NCBI GenBank assembly: GCA_030837285.1
Contig: JAUPKU010000162.1
Span: forward strand, 22,274-86,273
Direction: 5' to 3'
Source of the DNA: Thermoproteota archaeon
GTDB taxonomy: Archaea > Thermoproteota > Bathyarchaeia > RBG-16-48-13 > GCA-020355125
DNA: 64,000 nucleotides
Position numbers and translations under genes: made by a program. The notes beneath the pieces were generated by a model that saw only the letters and a list, made by a program, of their open reading frames with translations, searched no databases and was not told the DNA's origin. Positions 5,550-48,769 of this stretch are shown one piece after another; positions within the stretch are counted from its first letter, which is position 1, and each line of letters opens with the position of its first letter.

Positions 5550-6011
5550 CTAGTCTGTAACTCGTTCAGGCCAATACTCTAAACTTCTAAATCCTTTTAG
5601 CGATTGCTTTCTCTCGATGTAAAGCAGCGCCATAGATGACAATGTCAGAAGCAGAATCGTTGAAATTATTGTTGGAAATTCTGGTATGACAGTCGTACCT
5701 ATGACTTCGATCTTGTGGGTGCTGTGGGTGTAGAAGATTTATATGAAATAATGTGTTCCATTGAATGCTTAAGTATAGCCCGCGTTCAGAAATAAAGGTG
5801 ATCCATCGAGTTTCACGGTTAAAGTTCCTCCAAGCAAGGCACTGGGGAATGAGATGTTACATAACCCTGATGTCCCCCTCAACCCTGTCACGTTGAAGCT
5901 GATCTACTTCAAAGTGATGCGCGCTAGCTGTCAGATGTTCTCATGAACACTTGAGTAAAGTGGTGAAAGTAGCTAACATATAGAATCTACATGGCTATAC
6001 AGAGGCCAATC
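5550..6011 (-). pseudogene. Decayed PEF-CTERM surface-protein gene (3' part)
   Basis: One minus-strand frame reads ...ISFNVTGLRGTSGLCNISFPSALLGGTLTVKLDGSPLFLNAGYT*AFNGTHYFI*IFYTHSTHKIEVIGTTVIPEFPTIISTILLLTLSSMALLYIERK...* . This is a PEF motif, a TM helix and a basic tail. At least 4 in-frame stops of types TAA, TAG and TGA occur further upstream, and there is no start codon. Confidence 0.6.
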
Positions 6012-6281
6012 TGAAGGAGAAAAAAACCTTTCTAAAGAACCTAGTTTTAGTCAAAGTCTAATCGCGCGTTAGCAATCTAAATGGGGAGTAGTTTTCATCT
6101 ACCTTTTTCACTTTAAAGGAGGACAAGGCCTAGGTGTGGTAGACTTCTTAAACCCCTAAAAGAACAATTCGCTAATGACAAAATAGCCTTTATTCATTTA
6201 AGATACAGATTCCACTTCCATAAAATCACGCATACTGTTAATGCGTGCGCTAATTGGTTTAATTGTTTATTTTGAATTGAG

Positions 6282-6677
6282 CTAGGAGGGTAGAGGATTA
6301 TTAGTCCCTCTTTTTAGTGTAATGTTCTTCTGGTAGTCTTTGAATGCTTCGATGAAGTCTTCTGCAAACCTATTCGCGTATTTCTCTGTTCCTCTATGCT
6401 CCGCACCATGTGTTCGGAGGTGATGGTAAAACTCGTGGAGGATTACAAATGGGTTGTTGAGGTAGTCCTGATTTGTTATGTGGATCGTCTTGGTCTTGGA
6501 GACGTAGCATCCAAGGTTCTTTCGGTGTCCTTTGGGCATTCCAACCTTCAGACTTGGTTCTTCAACGTTGTAGTGGCAGCTCAGCATCCCTATCGCATCT
6601 GTACTTTCTTTAGTGAGGATCATCTGAACGATCTTGACTTTGAATAGATTTTCCTCTTCTCCCTCTTCTTCAGGCAT
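6282..6677 (-). CDS. Small putative zinc metallopeptidase (HExxH)
   Basis: Contains ILHEFYHHLRTHG (HExxH followed by a further His) in a 131-aa protein with an acidic N-terminus. Confidence 0.45.
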   Translation of the reverse strand: MPEEEGEEENLFKVKIVQMILTKESTDAIGMLSCHYNVEEPSLKVGMPKGHRKNLGCYVSKTKTIHITNQDYLNNPFVILHEFYHHLRTHGAEHRGTEKYANRFAEDFIEAFKDYQKNITLKRGTNNPLPS

Positions 6678-6884
6678 TGGAGTTTCTCCTTTCCTCGTTG
6701 CAGTCTTGAACCCTATTGTGGTTCCGTAATAAGCCTTCTTCGGTTAACAAGGGTGGACATCTATTATTCAATTGCACCGGATGGCTCAACCATTGCAATA
6801 GATAGACTCGTTACAAAGTAAATTACTCTCCGTTCTAGCTTAACCACTCTTTTCATGTAACTTATAAATTAGCCAATTAGCGTG

Positions 6885-7640
6885 TTAGGGAAGATTTGAA
6901 AAAATACCTAAGAAAACTGCTATATCGGTTCCTGCATGGAACAAAATGGATCCTAGTGTGCTATTGGTTTTCTGCATTAATGCACCCCATGCAAGGCCGA
7001 GTAGAAACGTGAATATAATTAGAGCAAATGTGTAGGGCGTGTATGCTATTTGTCCTCTTCCGGCTACTGCGTGACTCAACGAAAATATGATGGCTTGTAA
7101 GAGGTTGGAGTAACCTAGTCCCAGCAGAGGTTCATATTTTTTGAGGAAGAGGCCTCTGTACAGTAGTTCTTCTCTGATGCCATTTGCCATTATGGTTATG
7201 AGCAGCCAGGGTGCCCAGGCAATTGCCTTCTCCAGGCTTAAGTTCTGACCTTGGAACAAGTATGTGGCTTCGGGAACAGACGCTGCGGCGAAGATGAAGA
7301 AACCAGCTATGCCAGCAACAAGTCCTAGTCTGATGTTTCCCTTCTGTAGAAAAAGCGCGGCCCAGTTATCCCCTGAAATCATGGATAGTACAATAATTGG
7401 TGTAATAACCAACACTGTGCTTAACACCATACTTAAAACTACACTGGTGATGGACGTCGTCTGCCAATTGAGGAAGGCACTTGTTGTCTGTAGACTGAGG
7501 GCGAAAGAGGCAATGAAGAATGATAGGAAAATCCTCCAGTACTTTTTGAAGGTTTCCTTTCTGTACATTACAACGGATAGCAAGAGGAATGTGGTTGAAA
7601 GGCCCATTCGGTATACCAAATCATAGTTAGGTGGAATCAT
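6885..7640 (-). CDS. CPBP family intramembrane glutamic endopeptidase (CAAX protease/Abi)
   Basis: Shows the three family motifs REELLYRG (EExxxR), FSLSHA (FxxxH) and LFHAGTD (HxxxD/N) within a multi-TM protein. Confidence 0.8.
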   Translation of the reverse strand: MIPPNYDLVYRMGLSTTFLLLSVVMYRKETFKKYWRIFLSFFIASFALSLQTTSAFLNWQTTSITSVVLSMVLSTVLVITPIIVLSMISGDNWAALFLQKGNIRLGLVAGIAGFFIFAAASVPEATYLFQGQNLSLEKAIAWAPWLLITIMANGIREELLYRGLFLKKYEPLLGLGYSNLLQAIIFSLSHAVAGRGQIAYTPYTFALIIFTFLLGLAWGALMQKTNSTLGSILFHAGTDIAVFLGIFSNLP

Positions 7641-7744
7641 CGAGAAGGGAAAGACTAGTAAACCTTAGAGAGAGGAAAGGCTGATGCCGCATATTAGGAA
7701 CAACAGGAATAGACTGAGATGATTTAAATTCTTTAGAACGCTTT

Positions 7745-8215
7745 TCATATTTTTTCACCAATAATATTTTTATGATCTCCATGACTTGTTTGTGGAGAGT
7801 ATCCATTCACTCCCATGAATGGGATGAAGGTTGTAGCTATTGTGAGAAGACCGCCAAAAACGCGAAAAATCATCCCTAGGCGAGTTGCCTTGTATCTTTT
7901 GTTCTGTTTTTGTTTGACTTGTTTCTCTTCGTATTCGGTAAGCTGCTGTTGAATGGGTGCCTGAAACTCCTCCACGACCGCTTTTCTTCCTGCTCTCTTG
8001 AGAGCTGGTATGGATAAAGAGGAAAGAAGGATCATGGGCTCCTTGCCTCTTCCTTTAACGCATCCAAAAAGGTTCTTTTTCTTCCAGAGAGTTTTCACTA
8101 TACTTCTCTAGTCTTGACTTGGCTTCCTCAGAAGTCAATCCTCTCGCTGGATCTATTTCCAGTTGCTTAAGGCCATCCTCAAGTTTCTTCGACGCCCAAT
8201 CAGTTGCCCTATTCG
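7745..8215 (-). pseudogene. Remnant of the N-terminus of a P-type cation ATPase
   Basis: The minus strand reads ...DWASKKLEDGLKQLEIDPARGLTSEEAKSRLEKYSENSLEEKEPFW, the classic Cation_ATPase_N signature. It then shifts frame into the listed 117-aa ORF (..KEPMILLSSLSIPALK..). The roughly 700 aa catalytic body is missing. Confidence 0.5.
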
Positions 8216-8861
8216 CAGTGCCTATAGCAATAAATCATCCCATAATTCCTTTCCTTTCAGATAATTCATTTTTTTAAGCTTAAGCTGACCTTGTAAATCA
8301 ACGCGTTCAATTATCTAAAAACAAGTTAAATCTGTATTCGTTGTCATGAAAAGTAATTAACCAATTTTTCCAGTCTGTTTGTCTGAACCGCTTCAACAAT
8401 AATTACTTGTCTCTATTTTTTGGTCAGAAGATTTATGTAAACTAATCCTCAATGTATACATAGTCTGCATATCTCTTGAGATCCAGTAGGTTCACGTAAT
8501 CTGAATATTCCTCTTGATATGTTGACAGGTAGACCTTTTATCTTTCTAACCATTCTCCTTTTTTTCCATTATTCTTTCAACTACGGCTCTAAAGAAAAAC
8601 TAAGTACTAAACCAAATAATGCGCACGCCCTCTAAAACAGAATATATTAATGTCATATGATGGATATAATATTTATAACGTGCACTACAGCGGTACACGA
8701 TCTCAATTCTATCATCTTCTGAGTTAGGCCAAGCTAGAAATATCGTGAAGAAGATCCCGACTCTTTCTAGCCAAAACTTAATCTTTTTTAAGTCCGTCAT
8801 ATTCTGATACATTAGCAAATTACCGTGGTAAGTTAATAGTAATCTTGATTCAACCTTTGAG

Positions 8862-10049
8862 ATGATTAAATTGAATGGTAGGTATTTTTTTACATCTGAA
8901 TCTGTTGCAGAAGGTCATCCGGATAAGGTTAGTGATCAAATATCGGATGCTATTCTTGACGAGATAATAAAGAGAGATTCTAAAGCTAGAGTTGACTGTG
9001 AAACATTGATAATGAAAGGAGTCGTTCTCGTTACAGGTCAGATAACTACTTCTTGTTATGTAAATATACCAAGCATAATTAGGCAAACTCTGAAAGAAAT
9101 TGGATTTAATAATGCTAAAGATGGATTGGACTGGGAAACTTGTGGTATTCTAGTATCTGTGGAAGAACAATCTCCAGATATTTCAATTGGAGTAACTGAA
9201 ACCAAAACTCATGAGCAAGGTGCGGGAGACCAAGGTATGATGTTTGGGTATGCTTGTAATGAAACAAAAGAATTAATGCCTTTGCCTATCATGTTAGCTC
9301 ACAAACTTGTGATGAGACTTGCAGAAGTGAGAAAGAAAAAAATATTAACTTATCTACGACCTGATGGAAAATCGCAGGTCACAGTAGAGTATGATAATGT
9401 CAAGCCGATGAGAGTTGATTCGGTTGTTATTGCAGCACAACACCTTGCAAAAATAAATATAGAGAAATTAAGAGCAGATATACTCAAAGAAGTAATCAAA
9501 GAAGTAATACCTCCAGAATTGTTAGATGAGAATACAAAATATTTTATAAACGGAACTGGAAGGTTTGTTATTGGAGGCACTTTAGCAGATACTGGTCTAA
9601 CAGGAAGGAAAATAATTGTTGATACGTATGGCGGTATAAGCAGCCATGGTGGAGGATGTTTTTCTGGTAAAGATCCGTCAAAGGTTGACAGATCAGGTTC
9701 ATATATGGCAAGATACATTGCAAAGAACATTGTTGCTTCAGGATTAGCTGATAAATGTGGAGTTCAGATAGCATATGCTATCGGTATAGCTGACCCATTG
9801 TCTGTTATGGTTGATACTTATGGAACTGGCAAAATTCCTGAAGAAGAAATTGCAGAATTAGTCAAGAAACATTTTGACATGAAACCTAAAGCAATAATTG
9901 ATAATCTAAACCTACTTAGACCCATTTATAGGAAAACTGCTGTTTACGGGCATTTTGGCAGGAATGATCCAGATTTCACTTGGGAAGAAACCAATAAAGC
10001 AGAGATACTCAGAAAGGAAGCTAGCAACAGAAAAGCGGCTCTTAGATAG
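8862..10049 (+). CDS. metK: S-adenosylmethionine synthetase, bacterial/eukaryotic type
   Basis: Contains [33 protein letters not shown] and [17 protein letters not shown] at a full length of 395 aa. Confidence 0.95.
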
Positions 10050-10147
10050 CATGCGTACGCGAATCTTCTAAACACCTAGACTAGTTATTTATGCATACTA
10101 GCTAACTCACCCGCTGAAAATAATCTCTTATCTCCAGATATGATCCT

Positions 10148-10471
10148 TTAATCTAATATGTTTGGCGTATCTTCTCCAGATTTCCTACTTGCATTTCTTC
10201 TCCTTTTCAAAATACTATTCAAAAACATGGAAGAGGTATGGAAAAAATGAATCTTCCTTTCTCTTTTCAGGACTCTTGAGACCTCGGACATGGCACCACT
10301 GTAATCCTCTATGTAACGAATATCCATGAAATATGTTACTCGATAAAACTGGCTGTTCTGAAGATCTATTCGATCACATGCATCTGAAATATGGTACATT
10401 ATGCTGAGTTTTTCGTTCAACGATACTTGTTTTGCCGAGTCTATAGTCTTTTCAGAGAAGTCTATACCCAC
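10148..10471 (-). pseudogene. Truncated class I SAM-dependent methyltransferase (lacks the SAM-binding motif I)
   Basis: Starts at ..VGIDFSEKTIDSAKQ (post-motif-I region) and contains ..EVSRVLKRERK... An in-frame TAA lies just upstream, so the GxGxG loop is absent. A GGAGG box precedes the GTG, so a short product cannot be excluded. Confidence 0.4.
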
Positions 10472-10615
10472 CAGTGATCCTCCTTTTTAGCTAGAATCCT
10501 TGTGTTGTGCCTCTCTCCACATGCAAGCACGCGCTAAAGGTTTATATCTTTGGGAGGCTGCTTCTGGTTTTTCAGGTTGATGGATTCTAAAGATTTTGGT
10601 GGAGGCTGGGTTCCT

Positions 10616-11494
10616 ATGGAGTTAGTGGATTTATCGTCCAGTATTGCTCTTAGGTTTGGCAAGTGGGTTAGCGTTAATGATGTGGCTGAGTATATTCTCT
10701 TGAGACAGAATGATGATGGCGGCTACACTTTTGCTCAATGGACTGACTCATCTGCTCAAGACACATTCTTCGCTGTTGAAGTGCTGAAGATTCTTGGTGT
10801 CCAACCGCGGAAGGTAAGGGAGATGGCTGGTTTTCTCAAGAGATTGCAACACCCGGATGGGAGCTTCGACTCTGTCCGAGTTGCGTACTATGTTGTGAAG
10901 ACTCTTGCAGGTTTTGGGGAGAATCCGAGCCTGCCTGTTGTAGATTACATTCTCTTTTTGAAGAGGGAGCACGGGGGATTCAGCGGGTTAGAGGCTTTTT
11001 GGGATGTACCCTCGGAGATAGAGGACACTTATCTTGCATTGGAAGTGCTTAGAGAGGCGTGTAATGAGTCAAAACTTGAGAGCACAGCCGAATTAATCCT
11101 CAAATCGCAGAATAAGGATGGTAGCTTCGGTAAAACCAACTACTCCCGGATAGCCTCAACCTACTATGCACTAGCCAGCCTCAAGATTCTTGGCTACAAT
11201 GTAGAGAACTTCAAGGAGACACTGAAATGGCTGAGAGGGATGGAGCTTCCACAGGGCGGCTTCGGAGAGATATACGTGAACCCTGAGCAGTACATAGGAA
11301 TAGAGGATGTCTACTTCGGAGTGAAAGCCCTCGAAATCCTAAATGAGAGCCTAACGCATCCCAAAGAAGCTTTAGATCTGATTAGCCAATTTAGAAATAA
11401 TAATGGTGGCTTTCGTAGGTCCAATGTGCTAGGCATCTCCACCTTCGAAGCCACGTATCAAGCCATGGCTGCCATGGAATCAATCCTTACGTAA
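10616..11494 (+). CDS. Prenyltransferase/squalene-cyclase-repeat (alpha-alpha toroid) protein
   Basis: Six spaced repeats: QNDDGGYT, QHPDGSFD, REHGGFSG, QNKDGSFG, LPQGGFGE, NNNGGFRR. ATG 10616 is preceded by GGAGG (10601-10605). The listed TTG 10550 start looks too long. Confidence 0.75.
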   Translation: MELVDLSSSIALRFGKWVSVNDVAEYILLRQNDDGGYTFAQWTDSSAQDTFFAVEVLKILGVQPRKVREMAGFLKRLQHPDGSFDSVRVAYYVVKTLAGFGENPSLPVVDYILFLKREHGGFSGLEAFWDVPSEIEDTYLALEVLREACNESKLESTAELILKSQNKDGSFGKTNYSRIASTYYALASLKILGYNVENFKETLKWLRGMELPQGGFGEIYVNPEQYIGIEDVYFGVKALEILNESLTHPKEALDLISQFRNNNGGFRRSNVLGISTFEATYQAMAAMESILT

Positions 11495-11696
11495 AGAGCG
11501 TACCATAAAATTCAACTCATGATCTTTTTATTTCATTTACTTCTGTCTTTTAAGCCCCCAGCTACATGATATTCGTATTCATTCTAATCCCGCGCTATTA
11601 TGACTATTCAAATACTCCACTTGTAATAGTCACGTACTAATTTGATCAGAGGATTCAAAATCGTACAGGATAACTTAACGCGAGCACTCAAATAAG

Positions 11697-12714
11697 ATGA
11701 AAACATCTAACAGAAGCCAATATTTCTTCATATTACTGATATTCCTTCTGGAAATTCAGCTTATCCATATCTCACCAGTGGATGGTGCTACATACCAAGA
11801 CATTTTTTCATAGAACCTGAAAAACTTCAGGTTCACGATTGCTTGGATAACTGATACTCAGTACTATAGCAAATCTCACCCACAGATTCTGCAACAGACA
11901 ATTGGATGGATAAATAATGAAACACTAAATGGCAAAATACAATTCGTCGTTCATACTGGCGACATTAAGGATAGTTATGATGGCATGAAGCAGTGGCGAA
12001 CCTTCACTATCTATTGGGGAAACCTAACAGCAGAGAACTATGTGTTAGCTGGAAACCATGATAATGACTATTGAAATAATTGGACATCCTACGACTCGCA
12101 TTTTCCCAGCATGAGGTATTACTAAGTCAAAGGACGGGTATCTGTTCCTCTTCATATCTTACTCGCTTGGTTAAGATAACGAAGTCAAGACATGGCTGTG
12201 GAATACCGTTCAAAACCACAACGAGAAGATAATCGTTCTTACTCATACATATCTGAGTAACAGCGAACGATTGACTGGTGATGGAGACGCTATTGAAGGT
12301 ATCCTATCTGAATTCAAGCCACGAGTCTTTTCCGTCTGGTGTAGGCATTCAGCAATAAACAAAATAGTGCAGAGAACCAGTGACAATGTATTTGGCATAT
12401 TACATGACTTTCAAAGGTACAAGAATGGTGGAAAGGGGTACATAATTCTAACTGATATGTATGAGAATGGATTCTAAATGCATCTATATTCCGTCGTAGA
12501 AGGTTTTGACGGAAAAGGGAAAGGTCAAGGCTATGAACTTTCAATCATGCTTTCCTCAACCGATGTGAATTCTGGAGATAATAATATAGCCCTCATGATT
12601 CTTGTTGTCGGAATTGTGATAACCACTATAGTTATAGTTGGAGCTTTAGTTAAACCAAGAGTTCGCGACAAATATTCTATCTGGAGTTGGAATAAAATCA
12701 GAACACGCTCATAA
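11697..12714 (+). pseudogene. Decayed secreted calcineurin-like metallophosphoesterase
   Basis: Has a signal-like N-terminus (MKTSNRSQYFFILLIFLL), then the motifs ITDTQY, VHTGDI, LAGNHD and IIVLTHTYL, and a C-terminal TM. The frame is broken by TAG 11811, TGA 12072, TAA 12123 and at least one frameshift near 12170-12190. Confidence 0.65.
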
Positions 12715-13103
12715 CTCGGATAGTGAAAAACAAAGACCATTCATATCAGCAGTTTTTCATCTACTTGCCAAAATATCTATAACTGATTCGGCATTACCAT
12801 CCAAAGCCAGAGAAAAAAATACTACACCAACTCGGATGCAATAAACAAATCATAGAAAAAACATAGCGCGTCAAAGGGCAAAACAAAACTGGACTGCTAA
12901 CAAGGATCAGCACGCGCTACTTTGATCTTCACTCCTTTTTATGAGAACCAATTCGGACGCTATTGTCTGTGTGATTGTAAAACCTCAGTTTCACATCATA
13001 ATATATATCGAGAATCAAAGTTATTCTTGAGCATGGGAAGAAGTTTTTTTTATCAGTAGCGAGCTTAAAAAATGAGTTATCTAAAGTGATTGATACTAAA
13101 GAA

Positions 13104-13432
13104 ATGGCTACGTACGAGGGTGTCTGGGTGAGCTGTATGTGGAGTACGACGTATTCAGGGTGAGAATGGGCCCTACTCCTCTTTTGAAAGGTTTGCCAAA
13201 TGACCGTGATCCCTGCCCACACTGGGAGGAGATAGTAAAAGGTGAGATGTGGATAATATACAATAGAAAAGAAGAGATTGTGAAGGCAGGAGAAGCTTAT
13301 TACATGCCACCAGGGCATACGACTATAGTTGAAGCGGGTTGTGAACTCTAGGAGTTTAGTCCGAATGATCAGTTCCCAAAAATCATTGAAGTCATGATGA
13401 GTAACTTTGAGACAATGCAAAAAAGAACATAG
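13104..13432 (+). pseudogene. Decayed cupin-domain protein
   Basis: Reads ..PLLKGLPNDRDPCPHWEEIVKGEMWIIYNRKEEIVKAGEAYYMPPGHTTIVEAGCEL*EFSPNDQ.., with an in-frame TAG at 13349-13351 and an N-terminal frameshift. The longer antisense ORF 12929-13492 has implausible composition. Confidence 0.5.
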
Positions 13433-13725
13433 ATAACAGTGTGCGCGATCAGTAGTTAGATAGAATATGCATGCATCTATGAACTTTGACAAAGCGATTA
13501 ATAATAAAAATTTGAAGATCTACGTCGACAAACAGGCTTAGGTTAGCGAGTGCTAGATCATAGTGCTTGAAATTCTAGAAAAAAGTTTCTGGTTGTACAT
13601 AATTTTCTTTCTCAAAACATAATTTGAGTATCGTAAATTCTTATAAGCAGAATGTATGACCTTTGGGGCTGCGCGAATACTTCGCTCAATGAAGATTATC
13701 CTTAGAATTTCAGGAAGCCAAAGCT

Positions 13726-14079
13726 ATGGGGGCTATGGGCACTCAAATGAATGTGAAGAATAGCTACGCGATGACGCTAATCATCGGATTGTGTTTGAAG
13801 TCTATTGACCTTATAACAACTTTCTTTGCTTTAAATATAGAGGGGTTCTCAGAAGGAAACGTTATCGCATCATGGTTTTTGTCCCAATCCCCGCTTGTCT
13901 TTGTCATATTCAGCATTACGATGTTTCTTATTCCAATGAGTCTACTAAAGTGGGGAATGAGAAAATTTGAGCCATTAAGCAGTCACACAAAAACGGTCTA
14001 TGGCATAATGCTACTTCTATTGCTGATCCCTGTGACTAACAACTTGATAAACTTGATCCAGTGGAGTTTGAGTTTGTAA
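13726..14079 (+). CDS. Small membrane protein (DUF5658-like)
   Basis: Three to four TM segments. The block KSIDLITTFFALNIEGFSEGNVIAS resembles the D..T....G..E.N motif of that family. This assignment is weak. Confidence 0.4.
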   Translation: MGAMGTQMNVKNSYAMTLIIGLCLKSIDLITTFFALNIEGFSEGNVIASWFLSQSPLVFVIFSITMFLIPMSLLKWGMRKFEPLSSHTKTVYGIMLLLLLIPVTNNLINLIQWSLSL

Positions 14080-14335
14080 CTACTGCCTCTTTTATTTAGT
14101 TCACGCTCACCAGAGGGTCTAAATTCAAATCTCTTAATCTTTTGACCTCTTCGAGTTTGAAGGTTCTTTCATGAAACTATCCCACTGGCATTTTTTCCCT
14201 TCAAAAGCTTCCAACGCGTGCTAAAAAGATGAATCCAAAATTCATAAACGATTTCACTCTCTAATAACTAAGGAATTGTCAGTGACGAAGCGTGTTCTAA
14301 CGTATCGCTCACATTCACACAAGAGCGTGGTGTGT

Positions 14336-14627
14336 ATGAAACCTTTTGATTTGGAAAAGAAAAATGTTCTCTCCAAAGAGGCAAATTAGTTAGGTACTGT
14401 ATTAGGTATTGAAATAGACCCGGTGACTTGGAAAGTAACTAATCTTCGTGTGGGCTTGATGGATAAGGCATTGCAGAGTCTTGAATTAACGCTTGAAAAG
14501 AGACTTCGAAAAACTTGTAGAAGTCTTCATCCCAACTGAGGCTGTTGAGATTGTTTCTGACTTCATCGTTCTTAACAAAAAGACAGATGAACTAAAGGAT
14601 ATCATTAAAATAACCAGCGTCAAATAA
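14336..14627 (+). pseudogene. Decayed PRC-barrel protein, paralogue of 23176-23454
   Basis: MKPFDLEKKNVLSKEAN*LGTVLGIEIDPVTWKVTNLRVGL.. parallels GKKVVETQAKVLGEVIDIEFDEKTMQLTKICLKL in the intact copy. There is an in-frame TAG plus a frameshift before ..LVEVFIPTEAVEIVSDFIVLNKKTDELKDIIK. Confidence 0.5.
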
Positions 14628-14978
14628 AGCCAAATAGTTAGTCATTGAATAACACTACAGCTTTCGTTTGAACAAAAGAAAGCACATGCGCACCACCGAT
14701 CGTAGATGTCTTTTTAAATATTAGAAACAAGACTTCGAAACTTTGGCTTTTAAGAGTTGGCAAAGATAAGAAGAAAACTTCAGGCTTTAGGGCCGTCAGT
14801 TTTTTAGACGCACGCGTCTGTCCTTTATGTTTAATAGTCATTGTTGTGATTGGAAGGATTATTGAATGCTCATCCAAATAATTGAAGCGAGGGAATTCTA
14901 CTGTCTGAAACTTCTTGGAGGAAGTCGGCTTTTCTCGTTCTTCTCTCAGTAGTCTTCCTTGATAGCCTAGGTTTTTCT

Positions 14979-16091
14979 GTGGTTCTACCATACCTCTTCT
15001 ACTTCGTTCAGGCACTCGGAGCCGACGTCTTCACCTATGGTCTGATTCTAACCTCCTACAGTCTAATGCAGTTCATCTCCGCACCGATAATCGCACGGCT
15101 GAGCGACCGTTACGGACGACGCAGAATACTGCTGTTTGCACTCCTTGTCTCGGGCTTATCGTACTTCGTTTTAGGAACGGCGAATGCCTTATGGCTCATC
15201 TTCTTAGCCAGGATGCTTTCTGGAACCACAGCTGCAACGGTGCCTGTGGCACAGGCTTACGTAGCCGACGTGACAAATGAGAACGAGCGCATTAAGTACT
15301 TGGGTCGGCTGGGTGCTGTGAGTGGCATCGCCTTCGTTTCAGGCTCAGCCATAGGTGGTACCTTAAGTGGGCTTTTCGGATACGCATTACCATCTTTCAT
15401 GGCCTCAACTTTCGCCTTCACCAATCTTGTTTCCGCATACTTCAAGCTGCCTGAGCCGGAGCATGCTGGAAGAGACCCTGAAAAATCCGCTTTCACTTTG
15501 AAAGCTCTGCGGAATCTGCTGAAGGATAGGCGAATGAAAATTCTATTCGCTGCCTCCTTCTTATTCACTGTTGCCTTCATGTTCTTGCAGGTGGTCTTTC
15601 CACCGTGGCTTCAGACTAACTTTGGCTTCGGCTCATTCGAGACTGGCCTCATGTTCTTCTACATTGGCATAGTAGCCGCGGTCACTCAAGGAGTATTCTT
15701 GCCAAAACTATCGGCGAAGCGCTCTCCAGCAACACTAGTGTCGTATGGACTGGTAATCCTCGCAGCCGGCTTTGTCGCGCTTGCAGCTGTTATAAATCTG
15801 CAATCACTATTACTGATTTCAATCTTGATTCCTTTGGGATTCGGAATTCTAAACACAGCCTTAAACACGCTTATCTCACTCAGTGTTCCCACAGAAGCTC
15901 AAGGTGGATCATTGGGCATAGCGAATTCGCTTGGCGGCCTTGCACAAACTATTACTCCAGCCTTTGCAACAATCTTATATGCGTTTGGACAGTCCATTGG
16001 CTTAAACTGGTTTGCATTCATCATTTCCGGAGCAATCACCCTCTCAATAATCCCCATAATCGCAAGTCTAAGAAAACAATCTAAAAACTAG
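14979..16091 (+). CDS. MFS transporter (drug:H+ antiporter-like)
   Basis: Contains LSDRYGRRRILL (the MFS loop 2-3 motif) and multiple TMs. The homologous frame stays open upstream to 14886 (..SWRKSAFLVLLSVVFLDSLGFS) but has no ATG/GTG/TTG there. Confidence 0.8.
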   Translation: MVLPYLFYFVQALGADVFTYGLILTSYSLMQFISAPIIARLSDRYGRRRILLFALLVSGLSYFVLGTANALWLIFLARMLSGTTAATVPVAQAYVADVTNENERIKYLGRLGAVSGIAFVSGSAIGGTLSGLFGYALPSFMASTFAFTNLVSAYFKLPEPEHAGRDPEKSAFTLKALRNLLKDRRMKILFAASFLFTVAFMFLQVVFPPWLQTNFGFGSFETGLMFFYIGIVAAVTQGVFLPKLSAKRSPATLVSYGLVILAAGFVALAAVINLQSLLLISILIPLGFGILNTALNTLISLSVPTEAQGGSLGIANSLGGLAQTITPAFATILYAFGQSIGLNWFAFIISGAITLSIIPIIASLRKQSKN

Positions 16092-16615
16092 ACTCGCGCA
16101 TGTGGTGTTGCTTCAGGTTCTGAGCAAACACTTCCGCATGTTTGGGATCCTCATCGTCAGGTCTCCCCTAATTCGTTTCCCCAAACCATTTAAGAAAACT
16201 ATTCGTGTTAAAGCCTTTACAATTGAATTCGTCAATAATCGTGTAACCTTTAAATTGTATTTCCCCCAGCACAGTGATTTTTGCAGCTTCTATCATTGCA
16301 CTGGTTGAGAAAATGTATGTTCTCTTATTGGTGACCTGTAGTAGTCTATCAGCAATGTCAAGCAGATATTTATGATGTTTTTTATATTCCTGAGCCAAAG
16401 CCAATTAACTCATATTCTTGAAGCTTTTCAGGATTTATTTGCTGTGGCACTTTTTATTGGTGCATCAAACTTTTACGAAGACATTAACGATTTTCTTAGT
16501 ATTATTATGATAATACGAAAACAAAACCAATAAAGCTTTCATAGGCAACTACTATTAGATAACGCGTACTATTTCTTTCTGTAAAGCATAACCCTGTCCT
16601 AACACTATATTTTGA

Positions 16616-16996
16616 TTACTGCCACCTATACAAGTTCTTCCTGTTTAGCGCGCGCGTCCTTAACTCGTCTACATTGCAGTGAAAACATAAGCCATTATGG
16701 CAGCATATTGCTTCATCACATTTTGAACATCGCCATTGTTTCTCCTGTGTCTTCAAGAACTTTAACATCCCATGTTTTTTGATAAATTCAAGGTTGCCGA
16801 TGAGGCTTATTCGGATAAGCGTTTGATATCGCTTGTCAATATGTTTCAGTTCTTCGCAGGGAAAGTCTTCACACTCATAGCAAAACTCTACTTTATTGCT
16901 CAACAGCAACTCGCATCTCTTTTTGAGAAAGGCGCACTTCTTGTTTCTTGGTCGGCAGCCTTTACAATACGGCATTCGAATTCCATTATTCTTCAC
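16616..16996 (-). CDS. Cys-rich DUF3795-type protein
   Basis: Shows the pattern CKGC..(n)..C..(n)..FCYECEDFPCEEL and a second Cys cluster, CSKCDEAICCHNGLCFHC. Confidence 0.55.
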   Translation of the reverse strand: MKNNGIRMPYCKGCRPRNKKCAFLKKRCELLLSNKVEFCYECEDFPCEELKHIDKRYQTLIRISLIGNLEFIKKHGMLKFLKTQEKQWRCSKCDEAICCHNGLCFHCNVDELRTRALNRKNLYRWQ

Positions 16997-17334
16997 ATCG
17001 TTTTTGAATGCGAGATATCCACTACAAACAGCTCAATTCATCCCACACGGTGCTATGAGCTCAGGTGTATCATGCATAGTTAATCAATAAGTAGGACAAC
17101 GTCTTAAACTCTTATGACATTTTATGACGAAAAAGCAAGAAAAAATTAGAGAGTAGTTATATGAGTATATGGTTTGGTAGCGGGGAGATGATTTGAACTT
17201 CCGATATTCAGTCCTTTGCGATATTAGACGATCTTTAAAAATGGTCAATTTTAAATTCTATGTCTAATTCAAAGAAGATGGAAAAATTTGAGAAGATGTT
17301 TTAGAGCTAATGATTAATCAAAGTCTTAGCTCTA

Positions 17335-18482
17335 TTACCAGGAGTCTATTTTCTGTTGACTCCATAGATACTTTGCTGTAATGTCTTCATTCAGTTCCAC
17401 TCCGAGTCCAGGTTTAGTCGGCGGTATGATGAAGCCTTTCTCATATTTTGGGGGTCCTTCATGATTTCCCACATCACCGGTCGACCTGTGGGCCATTCTT
17501 GGATGAGGAAGTTTGGACAACAAATATCCAACTGTATCGCTGCCATCCCAGCAACAGGACCACAAGGCATATGAGGAGCAATCGTAGCGTACCGGGCTTC
17601 AGCCATAGCCGCGATCTTCTTACTCTCCAAGAACCCACTACAGTGAATAACATCCAACTGCAAGACAGACGCTGCATCTGCCTCCATAATGTCGAAGAAG
17701 TCAAACTTTGAAGAACCGCTCTCCAGTAGCAATCGGAATCGTCTTAGCCCGCGCAACCCTCGCCAGCGCCCAATGTTCTCGGGTGGCACAGGCTCCTCCA
17801 AGAATAGTGGATCATACTTCTCAAGACGCTTCGCCAACCTAATGACACTAGTAGTGTTGAGTTTACCATGAGACTCAACAAGAATATCCGCCTCATCACC
17901 AACAGCCCTAGCACAATCTTCTGTAGAGCGGAGCCTCTTAAGAGAAATTGGTCTAGGATTCGGATAGGTAGGTCCAAGAGTATCCCACTTCAAACCCGTG
18001 AAACCCTGCTCAACAGCCTCAACCGCCCTCTTCGCATACGCCTTAAGTTCTGGAAGCGGTGACGTATAATCTAATGGAATTGGCGATCCTACACTGATGT
18101 GTGTATAAACTCTTATCTTATCTTTTACTCGTCCGCCCATCAGGTTGTAGATCGGTTGCTTAACCGATTTTCCAATGACATCCCAGCACGCCACCTCAAC
18201 AGCGCTCATCGGAGCATTCATGAGAATTCCAGGGTGATGAAAATCATGGGTTAACGCATACATCCTCTGCCACATCTTCTCCACGTCAAAAGGGCTCTCA
18301 CCGACCACCTACTGCTTAAGCTCATTCACATGCTGCACCAAAGTCAAATCTCTACCACCATAAGAGACAGAAGCCTCAATAATACCCTCCACACCCTCGT
18401 CCGTCAGAAGCTTAACGAAGATTCAGCCACCCCTTCCCGGAATAGGGCTCATCATAAGAGTTTTAACATCCGTTATCTTCAA
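17335..18482 (-). pseudogene. Decayed enolase-superfamily dehydratase (galactonate dehydratase/mandelate racemase-like)
   Basis: Reads LKITDVKTLMMSPIPGRGG*IFVKLLTDEGVEG (TGA at 18423-18425) and ..NELKQ*VVGESPFDVEKMWQRMY (TAG at 18309-18311). A C-terminal frameshift near 17460-17480 joins to ..GFIIPPTKPGLGVELNEDI. Confidence 0.75.
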
Positions 18483-18552
18483 AACCAAAACCTCGAAAAA
18501 ACCATCATAAAGAATTGGTTTCCACTAATATCTTCTTTAACAGCAAAGGACA

Positions 18553-19134
18553 TCAGAGTTGCTTAGAAACGCTCTTCCACACCCTCTCGGCAACCTCACC
18601 CGCCGATCCCTCACCATCCACGACAATCCAATTCAGCTTCTTAGCCAGACTCAAATAATTCTTTCTAACCTTTTCTAGAAAGGGTTTGTTCTTCTCATAG
18701 ACATCCCTCTTCTCAGGGTCACATCTCTTAAGGCTAGTCTCCACAGCCACGTCAATTATAACAACCACATCCGCAGTTGGTAGCTTCTCCTCCAACTGCA
18801 TCATCCAATTCAAATCAAGATCATTCGCTAAACCATACGCAAGCCCCGAAGGAATATACCTATCTGCAACAACAATCTTCCCTTCTCTAAGCCACAAGTC
18901 AATGTCCTTTTTTCTCTCCCACCTATTAGCCACATAAAGAAACTGACGTACCTCAGGAGAGAACTCAACACGCCCGCTAAGAAAGAGCCTGATCTCCCTT
19001 CCAAGAGGCGTCCTATAATCTGGGAACTCGATGCACTCCACCCCGCGACCAGCAGCCTTAAGTCGCCTAAACAATAATTCCGCCTGTGTACCCTTACCAG
19101 ACTTGTCAATGCCCTCAAATGCAATCAAGACCAT
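18553..19134 (-). CDS. tmk: Thymidylate (dTMP) kinase
   Basis: Has the P-loop FEGIDKSGKGTQ and the DRY motif (VADRYIPSG) at a length of 193 aa. Confidence 0.9.
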   Translation of the reverse strand: MVLIAFEGIDKSGKGTQAELLFRRLKAAGRGVECIEFPDYRTPLGREIRLFLSGRVEFSPEVRQFLYVANRWERKKDIDLWLREGKIVVADRYIPSGLAYGLANDLDLNWMMQLEEKLPTADVVVIIDVAVETSLKRCDPEKRDVYEKNKPFLEKVRKNYLSLAKKLNWIVVDGEGSAGEVAERVWKSVSKQL

Positions 19135-19986
19135 AACAATTCAGCCATCCACGAATTGAATAAAGAAATACCTGCCTGAATAAAAGATTAAACATAACAC
19201 AAAGAGAAATCATGTAAACCTACTATAATTAATCAACTAAACTCGTGTTCTTTGAAGAAAAAATGGCAATTGGCATTGTCTTAAGAACTAATTAAGTTCC
19301 CAAACATATTCTTGCTAACTAACGTTCTCTCTATCTCATTCTCTAACTAACTCTCTCTACAAACCAAAAAAATCCCAAAAAACCGTCACTAAAGCCGAAA
19401 AAAGATCGAAAAAGAATAAGCTAGATGTTTTTAAATCTTTATGGTCTTGTGATACGTACCTATAATTCATTATTATTTTATGTCATAATTCATTAGACTG
19501 TAACATCGCGTATACTGAATTTTTTCGCCTCGTCAATATATCTGTTTAAAGAGCACACGCTATAGGGGTAATATGATGTAGATAATCTGATAAATTGTCT
19601 AATCAAGATAAATGGTCAGCGTTGAAAGTAATCACTGTCCTCTTCGGAATTATTTTTTTATCCTTTCAAGATTTGCAGATTTAGCTTCAATAATGCTTGG
19701 AGAAAAGACTGCTCTATCTCTCTTGAGTATTCTTGGGACGGGTATGCTCAAAATGATAGTCGGCATTATCATGGTCTCAGCTGTAATCTCCACAGATACA
19801 CTAGAAAGTGTATATGATGAACTTATTACAACCATATAGAAGTAAGCTCGCAAGCTACATTGAAAAAAATAGTAGCGAAATTATGGGATACGTAAAAGAA
19901 GTTAATTGATAGGTGATCCGACTTGGAGAGTGGAACACTATTGTTCTTTCTTCTATCCAGAAGATGCTGTCATAGGAAAATTGGGT

Positions 19987-20262
19987 TTAGCCTTTCCATA
20001 ATCCTAGTGCTAATCCGATAATAAATGTGAAAGAAGAATAAGGAAATCTGGTAAATAATCCATTTCCTGTCTCAATTAGTGCGCTAGCTAAAATATCTTG
20101 AAAACTAATAGTTATAACCTCTGAAAACACAAGCAGGCTTACCAAAGCAGCAATAACAAATATTAACTTTATCGTATGCTTAACCGTGTAACTGACTAAT
20201 AATCCTACAATTAAAGGCACAATGATCGGGACCATCCAAATAATTTCAGGCAGAGTCGTCAA
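19987..20262 (-). CDS. Small hypothetical membrane protein
   Basis: A 91-aa ORF with three hydrophobic segments and no recognised motif. Confidence 0.3.
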   Translation of the reverse strand: MTTLPEIIWMVPIIVPLIVGLLVSYTVKHTIKLIFVIAALVSLLVFSEVITISFQDILASALIETGNGLFTRFPYSSFTFIIGLALGLWKG

Positions 20263-21095
20263 CTCTTTCCATCCACCTTCCTAATGGCAAATGCTTGTTG
20301 AGGAGTAGAAGAGAGGGAAAACTAAAAACCTCCCTTCATACTCTGAACTTAGAGCTTATACATCGCTGTTATATCGATTATAACTATTATGACTAATGAA
20401 CCACTGGTACGTATCATATGACCAGTATGTATCATTTTTTAGCACATTACCAAGAACCGAAGGTTAGAGTCCAACAATTTCTTAGAACATTTTAGTTTAG
20501 GTTTACACTAGGGCAATTTTACAGTAAAACAATCGTATCAACCATATTGACATCATAAAACAAATCAGTTGCACCATAATGAAGATAAGTAAGCCCACGC
20601 GGTTAACCCGCCAATTAATTTCTGTATATCTTTAATAAAAATTGAAGAGAGACAAAAATGTCATTATTAAGGAAGCACACGTTTGCGTGTTTTCTGATAT
20701 ATGTAAACTAGCAAATGGATGACTATTTTACAGCAGTGTTTTTAGGCCTCTTTCTCAACATCATCAGCACTATTGCTACAACCGCTACAGCTGCGATACC
20801 TTCTTCGATCAAGAGGTAATTCGAATCAGTTCCTATCCCCGTGCTTGAGCCCGTGAGCGGGGGTGCTTCCCATGATAGCGTAAACTCATGCCATGCTAAT
20901 CCTGAATATGGTATGCTATGTCTGTTTTGTGTCTAGCGTGGGCTTTTTGTTTATTTTCAACTACTCAAAGGTAAAAAAATGTTTTTTTATTTGTATGTTG
21001 ATTAAATTTAGTCTATTACGCAGAAGCCAAATAATTTAGTCAGTCTATGGAAAAAGATTATTTTCAAGTAGAGCGTATTAATAAAGTGATAAAAA

Positions 21096-21677
21096 ATGGC
21101 TCAGAATAATATTCTGGAAGAAGTTTTTAAATCTCTTGACGAATATTTCGCATCTCAAAATGATGATATCATAAAAGGCTTGACTATAGGCATTGAGTTG
21201 GAGACGAAGGGCAGAAGTTTCTACTTAGCCAAATATCAAGAATTTAAAAATGATGTTTTCAACTTTCTAGCAGATGATGAGCTCCAACATTTGAAAGCTC
21301 TTGAGAATGTGAAAGAAATCATTGAGAGACGAGGTCAATGGGTGGAAGTGAGAAAGGTGCAGCTAAAAAATCTTGGAAGACCTAAACTCTTTGAAGGTGG
21401 ACAAACAGAGCCTAAAATAGCTGATGAGTCTTCTACAAGGAGCATATTACTGGCAGCCCTAAGTGCGGAAAGTAAGTCCGAAGAATTCTACAACAGAATG
21501 GCTGAAAAGGTAAAGGATGAAGATGCAAAGAAGTTTTTTACAGCTTTAGCTAATCTCGAAAGACGGCATTTTGAAATCATTAGAAATCAACTTCCAAAAG
21601 AGAAGGAAGGTGGAGTCATAAGCAGATTCACTGAAGGAAGAGTTCATAAGCACACACGCTCCAGACGCTTCCACTAA
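21096..21677 (+). CDS. Rubrerythrin-like ferritin-fold protein
   Basis: Two half-sites with E...ExxH spacing: ELETKGRSFY...DDELQHL and AESKSEEFY...LERRHFE. Confidence 0.6.
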   Translation: MAQNNILEEVFKSLDEYFASQNDDIIKGLTIGIELETKGRSFYLAKYQEFKNDVFNFLADDELQHLKALENVKEIIERRGQWVEVRKVQLKNLGRPKLFEGGQTEPKIADESSTRSILLAALSAESKSEEFYNRMAEKVKDEDAKKFFTALANLERRHFEIIRNQLPKEKEGGVISRFTEGRVHKHTRSRRFH

Positions 21678-21835
21678 AAAGTAGGTCATAGGTTACATTC
21701 TATTATACTATAATATACTTTGAAAAGAAGACGCAACGATTCCTTAAGTGCCTAAGGATACACTTTTGAAATCTGGATGCCACAACGGGGAAGCCCGTGC
21801 TAGGTCCTGCAGAGTACGATAAAAAAGAAAAGATG

Positions 21836-22270
21836 TTAAGGTAGATCGTAGGGGAACATTATTCTCCGCTCGTTTTCATCAACGTATTCTCCGACAATGT
21901 CTGCTTTGAAGGTTGATCCTCTGCGATTAAAGAGGACAAGCGTTGTAATCGTCGTATCCTTATGAAGTTTTTCTAGGACAAACTTCATGGCAATCCCCTG
22001 ATCCAACCAATCATCCACGACCAGAACTCTTCCACGCACCGCGTCTATCTGACACAGGTCATGAACCATGATCTTCATGCTCTCTCCTTCCCCGGTGTGT
22101 CGTACAAAGACTGAGCAGAATGTCGGTATTCCCATCTTCGATGACATATAAGCTGCAACTAGGGAGCCGCCCCTGCCTATCCCTACAATGCTATCGAATG
22201 TTCTAAGTCGTATCTCATCATAGAGTTTATCCAACAAATTAGTGTACTCATACCAAGCAACTATCTTCAA
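21836..22270 (-). CDS. Phosphoribosyltransferase family protein
   Basis: Has the PRPP-binding acidic loop VLVVDDWLDQGIAM preceded by GIGRGG. Confidence 0.75.
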   Translation of the reverse strand: MKIVAWYEYTNLLDKLYDEIRLRTFDSIVGIGRGGSLVAAYMSSKMGIPTFCSVFVRHTGEGESMKIMVHDLCQIDAVRGRVLVVDDWLDQGIAMKFVLEKLHKDTTITTLVLFNRRGSTFKADIVGEYVDENERRIMFPYDLP

Positions 22271-22564
22271 ACTCTCTCACTCACACTATTTTCCAATTAT
22301 TTAAAATATATTCAACACATGCATATATGATTTTAGCATATTCACAACAGGTTCCATTCTCACTTCCCTACCTAAAAATCCTGCTTCCCCACACGCGCAA
22401 CGACACATCTAACGCATAACAGACCACGCATGCTACATCGCCAACTTGATTATTTACATTACTGAAGGAGAAAAAATCAGTTTATATTAGAAACATGACT
22501 TGTAATTCCTCAGCGCAAGCTACTAAATCCAAGTATCACGACTAAAAAGGGAGATGGACTAGAA

Positions 22565-23005
22565 CTATTTACTCAGTCTAAGTTGTTTCATAAAGCCGAC
22601 GACATCGTACAACAGTTTTTCTTCGACTATTTCACCGTTCTTCCACGTGGCGGCCGTGCAAAATTTAAGCTTCGCTATCTTTCTTGTCGGCGGAATCACT
22701 TTTCCATCTGCGCCTTTCATTGGCATCTTCATCGTTATTGTCCAATCGGCGACAGCGCAAGTGTGGTCTCCCTGACCGAAAGCAATATTGTAAGGCTTGT
22801 TAACCAATTTATTGTCGAAGGTTTTGAAGAACTCCTTAGCCTCGACATCATGGTTGTGTCGTCCTCTTGTAGGATCAGGCTGAGCTGGCCAGTACACCTT
22901 AACGTCTTCCCTATGAATCTTCTTAAAAATCTCCCAAAGAGGGCTACTAGACCCAGCATTTCATGCATTATCAATCGTCCTCATCAACTCGAGGTTTTCT
23001 TTCAC
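22565..23005 (-). pseudogene. SnoaL-like (NTF2-fold, ester-cyclase-type) protein with a single nonsense codon
   Basis: GTG 23005: VKENLELMRTIDNA*NAGSSSPLWEIFKKIHREDVKVYWPAQ... continues in frame into the listed 110-aa ORF. The TGA at 22961-22963 sits where the fold usually has Trp (..daWN.g..). Confidence 0.6.
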
Positions 23006-23175
23006 TCCCAAACAAAATCACCCTAAATAATTTGGGCTTTAGGAATAGATTTCAAAATTGCTGCAATTTCAGCTAAAGTGCGCGTGTAGTCCAATAACAG
23101 GATGTAAACGCAGTGCAATAGCCTCACAGTTTTTTATTCTTAAAGATCATATCTTAGAGTGGAGGGAGATGTCAA

Positions 23176-23454
23176 TTGCATATGGAAGAGTTGATAGGAA
23201 AGAAAGTAGTGGAAACGCAGGCTAAAGTGTTAGGAGAGGTGATTGACATCGAATTCGACGAGAAGACAATGCAACTTACTAAAATATGCCTCAAACTTAA
23301 CGAGAACATCGTTGAAGAAATGGGACTGAAGAAGCCAAGGTTGATAGGCAGCGTGAAAGCTGACTTACCTATCACCGTAATAAAAGCCATCAGCGACGTT
23401 GTAACCTTAAACAGAAGTGCAAAAGAACTCGGACCAATAGCAGTACAGCATTAA
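23176..23454 (+). CDS. PRC-barrel domain protein
   Basis: Reads ELIGKKVVETQAKVLGEVIDIEFDEKTMQLTKICLKL, a typical PRC-barrel N-terminal strand pattern. Confidence 0.6.
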   Translation: MHMEELIGKKVVETQAKVLGEVIDIEFDEKTMQLTKICLKLNENIVEEMGLKKPRLIGSVKADLPITVIKAISDVVTLNRSAKELGPIAVQH

Positions 23455-23551
23455 AACAATCAACAATACATTTCTAAGAAGAGGATTAAATCCTCAAATC
23501 ATTTTTTGTATAGCTCTCTCTCCATCCCATACGCGCTACATCCTCACATCT

Positions 23552-23859
23552 TCCTAGAAGACTGTGGTAAACTTAGTCTGTGCCTTCAGAAACTTTAGAA
23601 CTTCGCTTTTCTCGCGCTATCTGTCTAGAGTGCGCTTCAACCTTTTTCCTACTCCATTCAGCGCCTCATAGAGGCTCTTGAACTTGAGAGACCCCTTCCT
23701 CAAAGCCTCATAGTAAAGCCATGTTGTTGTATATTGACAGTCACACGTGTTTATGAAGACGTCTGATCCATTAATTAGTAAAGCCCTTAGGCAGATCAGT
23801 GCATAAAACCACTTATTCCAAGATTTCATAGAGAAAACAGAGACGAACAAGAATGACAA
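23552..23859 (-). pseudogene. Duplicated 3' fragment of the Nre gene at 27438-28709
   Basis: ..EALRKGSLKFKSLYEALNGVGKRLKRTLDR*REKSEVLKFLKAQTKFTTVF* matches ..EALRKEPIKFKSLDEALYGVGKRLKLPLARWREKSEVLKFLKVQTRLTTFF* in the intact gene. The nucleotide alignment is obvious over about 170 nt. A TAG (23617-23619) replaces the TGG of the intact copy. Confidence 0.65.
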
Positions 23860-25588: not shown

Positions 25589-25840
25589 TATAAAAAAGCG
25601 CGCGTGCATGTGTCATTCATTTCTTCATACCGCGCGATAAATTAGAAGTTTAAGGATTAAATTTTAATTTTTTTCTCCCTGACGACCTAACGCCCTAGAG
25701 GTTTATACGTATTTCCACAAAATTATCTTGCACATACGGATACAAATTATACCACATTAACCTGTTAAGAAAAAGAAAAAAGAAGAAAACAGCATCAGAA
25801 AATCGTGCGTATTTTCGTTGTTGTAGAAACTCTATCCCAT

Positions 25841-25850
25841 ATATTTAAAT
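25841..25850 (+). promoter_or_regulatory. Candidate TATA box for the PEF-CTERM gene
   Basis: atatttaaat lies 36-45 nt upstream of the proposed TTG start. Confidence 0.3.
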
Positions 25851-25885
25851 TACTTAAGTCAAGTATTTTATTAGGAGGCGATTGT

Positions 25886-46747: not shown

Positions 46748-47221
46748 TCAGAGGTTCTTCCATCCCATCGCGGGCGGTTCAATTCCCATTTGCCATAGAA
46801 GAGCGATTAGTTCACCTCTATGATGAACTTCCTCTTCAAAGAGGTGAATAAGAACATCTTCACCTGTTACCTCTATAGTCGTATCAGACTTAACTCTCTT
46901 GTATTTCATCGCTAATCTGCTAGGGGTCAGAGAATCAAGGAATATCCTCATGCGTGCTTCTACACGCTCCATGTATTCTAGGATATCTTTCACATTCTCG
47001 TATTCTTCGTATCTTCCTTGGGTGCGGCGATGCTCTCCTAACAGAAAGTCAAGCCAGTAATCGCTGCATCCCATGGTGTGTATGAAAATGTTACGGAGAG
47101 ACTGAAAACTGGCTTCACGATTTTTAACTAGTTCATCCCATGGAAGACTTGCGAGAGTCTCAAAGTATTTGTGTCTAATTTCCTCATTGTATCTCAGAAG
47201 CTCTACTATGGATATCATCAA
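46748..47221 (-). CDS. DinB-family (four-helix bundle, metal-binding) protein
   Basis: Shows the His-triad pattern ..IFIHTMG.., ..EEEVHHRGELIALL.. Confidence 0.65.
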   Translation of the reverse strand: MMISIVELLRYNEEIRHKYFETLASLPWDELVKNREASFQSLRNIFIHTMGCSDYWLDFLLGEHRRTQGRYEEYENVKDILEYMERVEARMRIFLDSLTPSRLAMKYKRVKSDTTIEVTGEDVLIHLFEEEVHHRGELIALLWQMGIEPPAMGWKNL

Positions 47222-48539: not shown

Positions 48540-48769
48540 TAACCCTTATGAGAATCTCAGAATTTAGTTCTTTCCTCCTCTCATATCCAGACTTTTTAGA
48601 AATTAAGTATAAACAGAAAAACAACAAATTTCCAAAGTGGATACCTTGCGGTTACACCAGATAAATGATTTGAATATGCACAGCGGAATAAGAAATTGCC
48701 TATTCAACGAAATTCGAAGATTTGGCACGTGTATTCCAAGAATGAGTTGTTAATCAAGCACCATTTGGT

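Follow-up and report, generated by a model that had tools for sequence, protein, structure and literature searches.

A dense cluster of decayed genes in an 18-kb stretch of the chromosome of an uncultured freshwater-sediment archaeon

An 18-kb stretch of the chromosome of an uncultured, Bathyarchaeia-like archaeon from freshwater sediment is about half dead genes. It lies at positions 5550–23859 of the 64,000-nucleotide piece of contig JAUPKU010000162.1 that was analysed here (the window). The candidates for broken genes in it comprise eight that are firm, three that are probable and two that found no support. The firm set consists of a P-type ATPase stub, a methyltransferase stub, a metallophosphoesterase, a cupin, a dehydratase, a SnoaL-like gene, a 3' fragment of nre and a DUF3795 gene, and the probable set of a PEF-CTERM tail, a PRC-barrel gene and a major facilitator superfamily (MFS) gene with no start codon. 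Intact genes make up 36% of the stretch and recognisable remnants 27%, the remaining 37% being unassigned. A sequence-only reading of this DNA had claimed at least ten disrupted genes in about 18 kb, and this estimate holds: of its 12 items, seven are firm, three probable and two unsupported, and one broken gene (DUF3795, 16619–17083, minus strand) has been added to its list. On the basis of these observations we hypothesise that this is a flexible, rearranging region that is losing dispensable accessory genes under relaxed selection, with the dead DNA being removed slowly. We put the probability of this explanation at about 0.7.

The remnants were located by a six-frame Pfam scan of 5.4–24 kb in which stop codons were read as X, followed by comparison of gene-sized read-throughs with Pfam and NCBIfam. 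The remnants of the phosphoesterase, cupin and PRC genes escaped the Pfam scan of long read-throughs and came to light with the gene-sized ones; NCBIfam profiles contributed little beyond Pfam. For the dehydratase, phosphoesterase, cupin, SnoaL and PRC genes, homology spans the disruptions, and the same is true of DUF3795. Stop-free frames of at least 100 amino acids cover 0.43–0.75 of the sequence between 4 and 24 kb, against 0.87–0.98 between 24 and 52 kb. The content of guanine plus cytosine (GC) is lower in the region than in the 28–46 kb block. The window is archaeal in content: it encodes Nre, TFIIB and a PEF-CTERM cargo protein and has a free-standing 5S rRNA gene. Four studies of freshwater, freshwater sediment or sediment have yielded metagenomes in which near-identical sequence is present at low depth.

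For two pseudogenes intact orthologues are shown, at 78–79% nucleotide identity, and lesions could thus be called base by base. One is an enolase-superfamily gene, similar to galactonate dehydratases (17338–18482, minus strand). Its two intact orthologues are P0001, with 84% amino acid identity, which adjoins tmk in locus L081, and P0002, with 78%, in locus L082. A three-way alignment with these shows two tryptophan codons turned into stops (TGG to TGA at 18425 and TGG to TAG at 18311) and four deletions, one of 12 bp and three, of 1, 2 and 1 bp, that shift the frame. The MR_MLE N- and C-terminal domains of Pfam fall in two different frames. Since their separation the window branch has accumulated 93 changes and the L081 branch 73 (relative-rate p 0.12), of which 34 and 20 respectively are at first and second codon positions; 63% of the window changes are still at third positions. 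The excess of non-synonymous substitutions (dN) is only about 0.02, while synonymous divergence (dS) between the lineages is saturated, and the dehydratase therefore appears to have died recently.

The other is a secreted, membrane-anchored metallophosphoesterase (11697–12714, plus strand). The sequence-only reading had given it four stops and a frameshift, and comparison with the intact orthologue P0121 in locus L093 (337 amino acids; 69% amino acid and 79% nucleotide identity) bears this out. There are four stops (TAG 11811, TGA 12072, TAA 12172 and TAA 12475, replacing GAC, GGA, CGA and TAC respectively) and a 2-bp deletion at 12123, together with a 3-bp deletion near 12552. The GH motif has been lost as well, having become RH. 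The Metallophos domain is recognised on the read-through across the frameshift (E 5.7e-8). The ratio dN/dS is 0.165 for the phosphoesterase, 0.094 for tmk and 0.036 for the dehydratase (dS saturated), and on this basis the phosphoesterase looks older as a pseudogene than the dehydratase.

The read evidence consists of contigs that Logan built separately for each run, from as many as eight public runs in several studies. Of the 12 lesions checked, in five genes, 11 are present in separately assembled contigs of single runs, some of them from other studies. For the dehydratase, five of the six lesions lie in contigs of runs X1, X2 or X3 without differences, the 2-bp deletion at 17709 not being covered. 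Each of the five disabling lesions of the phosphoesterase is found in contigs of two or more runs, three studies being represented. The PRC stop (TAG) is present in contigs of X2 and X4, and the DUF3795 stop is covered by contigs of X3 and X4 without differences. The SnoaL stop is covered by contigs of X2 and X6, and that of the nre fragment by contigs of X1 and X2. The sequence-only reading had allowed for consensus errors. No contig covers the 17709 deletion or the PRC frameshift allele of the window, but because separately assembled contigs carry nearly all of the lesions tested, the stops and frameshifts are not consensus errors. An origin in a minority strain was considered and rejected: the region is covered as deeply as the intact 28–47 kb block, and therefore belongs to the main population.

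That the lesions are nevertheless an artefact of assembly or sequencing in a low-coverage metagenome-assembled genome (MAG), or are recoded by reassigned stop codons or programmed frameshifting, is very improbable. Coverage per run is low (word depth 2–5), five of the in-frame stops are TAG, and the PRC frameshift allele and the 17709 deletion are covered by no contig. Pyrrolysine machinery is encoded by some Bathyarchaeia. Error would have to have produced the same lesions, without indels, in run-wise contigs from several samples and studies, and to have spared the neighbouring 28–47 kb, which has equal depth and no lesions. Single genes carry several lesions, including TAA, TAG and TGA stops and deletions of 1, 2, 3 and 12 bp; the stops stand where orthologues have Trp, Gly, Arg, Tyr or Asp codons; and in the phosphoesterase catalytic residues are lost too. 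The 36 intact genes use all three terminators (16 TAA, 11 TGA and 9 TAG), and since the in-frame stops of the remnants are also a mixture of TAA, TAG and TGA, recoding is excluded. Stop-codon reassignment and pyrrolysine read-through were both rejected on these grounds. In the same contig data, one X4 contig joins 39831 to 41897, skipping 2065 nucleotides across two adjacent ABC exporter genes; with only 20 nucleotides on its shorter side, this junction may reflect a paralogue or a chimera rather than a deletion variant.

The remaining firm cases range from short stubs to genes with a single lesion. The P-type cation ATPase survives as an N-terminal stub (8058–8234, minus strand; Pfam Cation_ATPase_N, E 7.7e-9, profile positions 1–49 of 69), and its remaining 800 or so codons are gone. 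A remnant of a class I S-adenosylmethionine-dependent methyltransferase of UbiE/MenG-like type (10082–10558, minus strand) has stops at both ends and no motif I: the Methyltransf_25/11 match (E 3e-7) starts only at profile position 22, and the UbiE-type match in NCBIfam (1.9e-9) is far under the cut-off. The small cupin (13100–13432, plus strand) has an in-frame TAG at 13349 and has lost its first 15 or so codons behind four stops. Its Cupin_2 match in Pfam is weak (E 0.012), but the read-through finds 747 homologues at E≤1e-3, the best alignment (query residues 8–108) spanning the TAG at residue 84, and these homologues begin 15–25 residues earlier. An open frame of 187 amino acids that runs antisense to the cupin (12929–13492, minus strand) matches no family; it is probably spurious, but could be picked up by a gene caller. 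In the SnoaL-like gene (22568–22984, minus strand; Pfam SnoaL, E 2e-15) the only lesion is a TGA at 22963, eight codons in. In the DUF3795 gene a TGA at 17035 falls inside the N-terminal CGxxC motif, the first of its Cys motifs, and the Pfam match (E 6.9e-9, residues 10–80) runs across the stop.

The three probable cases are of different kinds. The PRC-barrel gene (14336–14627, plus strand) has a TAG at 14387 and a −2 frameshift near 14503–14506. Its Pfam match is weak, and it is recognised by alignment of the read-through, over both stop and frameshift, with the intact paralogue at 23176–23451 (E 2e-8). The frameshift is polymorphic: an alternative haplotype of 14472–14506, seen in X4 and X6, has six differences in 35 bp, among them two extra bases that restore the frame, while the TAG is kept. 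Because a frame-restoring haplotype is present in two runs, the decay is still segregating. The PEF-CTERM surface-protein remnant (5553–6050, minus strand) retains a sorting tail (5595–5684) but has several in-frame stops and no start. The combination of PEF, hydrophobic and basic signals occurs once in the window and in none of 200 shuffles; the match to TIGR03024 reaches only E 0.099, and the remnant has no significant match to the intact cargo gene at 25805–27229 and no wider homology. The DHA1-type MFS transporter (14886–16091, plus strand; MFS_1, E 2e-52) is an open frame throughout, but the conserved motif of its first transmembrane segment, LSVVFLD, lies upstream of the first ATG, GTG or TTG. 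A TGA stands 20 codons before this motif with no possible start of these three kinds between them, and homologues of 380–410 amino acids align onto the upstream extension. This is probably a very recent loss of the start codon. Two further suggestions, a disrupted reading frame at 16102–16404 and a fragment of a transmembrane anchor at 20726–20932 (minus strand), were dropped, as neither has a family match. The second of them lies in a stretch of about 2 kb (19141–21092) in which neither strand has an open frame of at least 120 amino acids or a family match, and which is absent from the nre–tmk spacer of L081. It possibly consists of very old remnants.

The housekeeping genes among these remnants are whole, as the sequence-only reading had noted. 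Both metK (8862–10049, plus strand), with all three S-AdoMet_synt domains at full length, and tmk (18553–19134, minus strand; Thymidylate_kin, E 1e-34), which matches the full profile and is 76% identical in amino acids to its L081 orthologue, are intact. The MetK is of the three-domain type of bacteria and eukaryotes; its nearest relatives are in a Bathyarchaeia MAG (77%) and a Nitrososphaerota MAG (71%), after which the best matches are bacterial, at 57–66%.

The history of the region can be followed at nre. The intact gene lies at 27438–28709 (minus strand; Nre_N, 1e-91; Nre_C, 6e-34), and a displaced copy of its 3' end, comprising the last 52 or so codons (157 nucleotides; 23554–23710, minus strand) and carrying a TGG-to-TAG change at 23619, forms a direct repeat with 27438–27594, the two being 77–78% identical. 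The fragment also aligns with the nre ends of L081 and L083, and falls with the nre of the window, not with that of L081 (26 shared sites). In L081 and L083 the nre 3' end, tmk and an intact dehydratase are contiguous, and only 185 nucleotides separate nre from tmk, compared with 8.3 kb here. The additional DNA lies on both sides of the fragment: 3.9 kb between it and nre, with two intact glyoxalase-family genes and the PEF-CTERM cargo gene, and 4.35 kb between it and tmk, with the intact PRC gene, the dead SnoaL gene, a phosphoribosyltransferase, a rubrerythrin and the 2-kb blank. The duplicated nre ends look like the scar of an insertion, or of one-sided recombination into the 3' end of the gene. 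Of the changes unique to one copy within these 157 nucleotides, 21 are in the fragment and 12 in the live gene. In the series of ages the fragment is therefore several times older, unless it was imported.

Other loci in relatives are arranged differently too. The two nearest archaeal metK loci (L001 and L002) have metK alone in common with the window, and the phosphoesterase has different neighbours in L093. Among tmk loci in metagenome contigs, L083 alone is close, agreeing with L081, and L084 to L086 share just tmk. Relatives thus have other arrangements at the same place, as a flexible region implies, although those available for synteny are distant (about 78% nucleotide identity) and represented by short contigs only. 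A DinB_2 gene lies about 2 kb past the dehydratase in L081 (4396–4944); in the window it is 29 kb away, at 46748–47221, beside a broken gene of the URO-D family. A mechanosensitive channel gene of L081 has no counterpart in the window. Rearrangement therefore reaches past the region of decay.

Decay itself is concentrated. Of 11 broken genes about ten fall within the 29% of the window that the region occupies (binomial p about 3e-5), which corresponds to about 5.5e-4 per bp in the region, about 2e-5 outside it and about 1.7e-4 as the window average. Between 24 and 51 kb long open frames are almost continuous, with only two gaps of at least 250 nucleotides, one being the 5S rRNA gene and the other the N-terminus of the URO-D gene. 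This URO-D/MtaA-family gene (47381–48541, minus strand) had been proposed as a further disrupted gene, and it is indeed broken: profile positions 99–346 are in frame (E 2.8e-21) and the N-terminal part is disrupted, the upstream frame having no match. Its MtaA-type matches in NCBIfam are far under the cut-offs. With 24–51 kb nearly continuous and a single further broken gene in the window, we conclude that the decay is clustered. A second decay zone at 51–60.6 kb, where open frames cover little of the sequence, was considered and rejected, as a six-frame Pfam scan found small intact genes and long spacers there and no remnants. One of these spacers, of 1.3 kb and otherwise empty, holds a small open reading frame for a treble-clef zinc finger (54277–54387; zf_Tbcl_2, E 3e-18).

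This distribution bears on the wider claims made from the sequence, which offered either a decaying accessory region or genome-wide reduction, with host association, a small population or a bottleneck as its setting. The types of gene, their clustering and the lost synteny favour the first; within the window, the even spread of pseudogenes that genome-wide reduction implies is absent. Nor is there support for a host, since all runs with the sequence are labelled as freshwater, freshwater sediment or sediment metagenomes. The density had also been called far above that of a free-living archaeon. This has to be qualified, since the window average is near that of published Bathyarchaeia MAGs from the sediments of Lake Cadagno and Polar Fox Lagoon, which have 125–278 called pseudogenes each, or 1.1–1.6e-4 per bp and 10–14% of coding sequences (PMC13288992, Table S2). 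The similarity lends some weight to a rival explanation, that the genome of a slow-growing, energy-limited archaeon with a small effective population is eroding throughout by drift, the 18 kb being a local peak; burial-time selection and drift form the frame in which PMC13288992 discusses pseudogene load. A URO-D-family gene broken outside the region and AT-ward drift in both the window and L081 lineages would fit such erosion, but it sits badly with the strength of the clustering, with 27 kb interrupted only by the two gaps mentioned and with 51–60.6 kb free of remnants, and the published counts come from an automatic caller applied to fragmented MAGs and may be inflated. We consider it unlikely as the main cause, though drift across the genome may act as a background. 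Its more far-reaching form, in which the stretch is a sample of long-term, lineage-wide erosion in a buried and barely dividing archaeon whose dead DNA persists for about the time of divergence between species, draws on the 13% unique change of the nre fragment and the 2 kb that are no longer recognisable, and is still more doubtful. If true, such stretches could serve for unculturable organisms as a neutral clock and as a recorder of the mutation spectrum (AT bias, and a ratio of small deletions to substitutions of about 0.2).

Alternatively, the region might be what is left of integrated mobile elements, whether one or several, or of imported DNA, in which passenger genes decayed after arrival. 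The 3.9 kb between nre and its displaced 3' end has the pattern expected of integration, or of one-sided recombination, into a gene end; the further 4.35 kb in the nre–tmk spacer relative to L081 and the low GC content point the same way. Set against this, neither an integrase or transposase nor a tRNA target or terminal inverted repeat turned up in six-frame Pfam scans and a repeat search, the sole repeat being the 157-nucleotide nre end at 78%; the 3.9-kb insert holds intact genes; the dehydratase pseudogene, in synteny with tmk, is ancestral; and the phosphoesterase orthologue looks vertically inherited, with divergence as for core genes. A wrecked element is accordingly improbable. The explanation preferred here, a flexible region losing dispensable genes, also has points against it. 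The lack of mobility features and of a tRNA counts here too, and the dehydratase pseudogene sits in an ancestral syntenic block and not in inserted DNA. The 24–51 kb block was judged intact solely by the continuity of its open frames, and the decay is shown to be local for a 64-kb window of a 112,770-bp contig. Relaxed selection as the cause is an inference, and so is slow deletion as the explanation for the persistence of the remnants.

Under the preferred explanation, selection would no longer keep dispensable accessory genes in a rearranging part of the chromosome, and these genes would be destroyed singly by ordinary mutation, mostly stops arising by G/C-to-A/T changes and deletions of 1–12 bp. 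The genes that are broken (an efflux pump, a sugar-acid dehydratase, a cupin, a SnoaL-like gene, a secreted phosphoesterase and a surface protein) are of this accessory type, and purifying selection would have kept metK and tmk between them. In the dehydratase comparison, mutation on the window branch is AT-biased, with 61 GC-to-AT changes against 22 in the opposite direction, which agrees with the region's lower GC content. Near-intact genes (the MFS gene with no start, and SnoaL and DUF3795 with one stop each) stand beside the recently dead dehydratase and the older phosphoesterase, and the blank 2 kb and the stubs of the ATPase, methyltransferase and PEF-CTERM genes would be of still greater age. 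Remnants of very different age thus adjoin, which suggests that dead DNA is removed slowly and that this would leave them side by side.

The result is a case, verified at base level, of dense gene decay in an uncultured sediment archaeon, and it shows decay to be patchy along the chromosome. For neutral DNA in organisms of this kind it yields an approximate spectrum of mutations and a series of ages. In annotation, some ten "genes", including the dehydratase, the phosphoesterase, the MFS pump and a possible MtaA-like methyltransferase, should be omitted from metabolic reconstructions. It is worth adding that the motif GCACGCGCGCTA occurs six times at up to two mismatches between 1630 and 25607, against 1.3 expected, with no link to the lesions.

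Seen beside known systems, this is best read as ordinary loss of dispensable genes, unusually densely packed, and it reveals no new mechanism. Mycobacterium leprae and Sodalis glossinidius are pseudogene-rich, recently host-restricted bacteria whose decay is genome-wide. The region resembles them in that about half of its genes are dead by point mutation or small deletion, 36% of it is intact coding sequence, remnants are retained and drift is AT-biased. It differs in that the decay is regional within the window, in an archaeon living free in sediment, with no expansion of insertion sequences. Flexible genomic islands provide a second comparison. Lost synteny, the displaced 3' end of nre, lower GC content and accessory and cell-surface genes are shared with these, the region lying between a sortase cassette and the PEF-CTERM cargo gene; against the likeness, the searches gave neither mobility genes nor identical repeats of att type, the nre ends being 77–78% identical, and one of the dead genes is ancestral. 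The nearest counterparts are the Bathyarchaeia of Lake Cadagno and Polar Fox Lagoon (PMC13288992), which belong to the same class, come from the same type of habitat and carry a pseudogene load similar to the window average. Those loads are automatic genome-wide counts, with no base-level check or map position, whereas here the lesions have been verified against orthologues and reads, which supports such counts as being at least partly real biology, and the pseudogenes are concentrated four- to fivefold in one 18-kb stretch.

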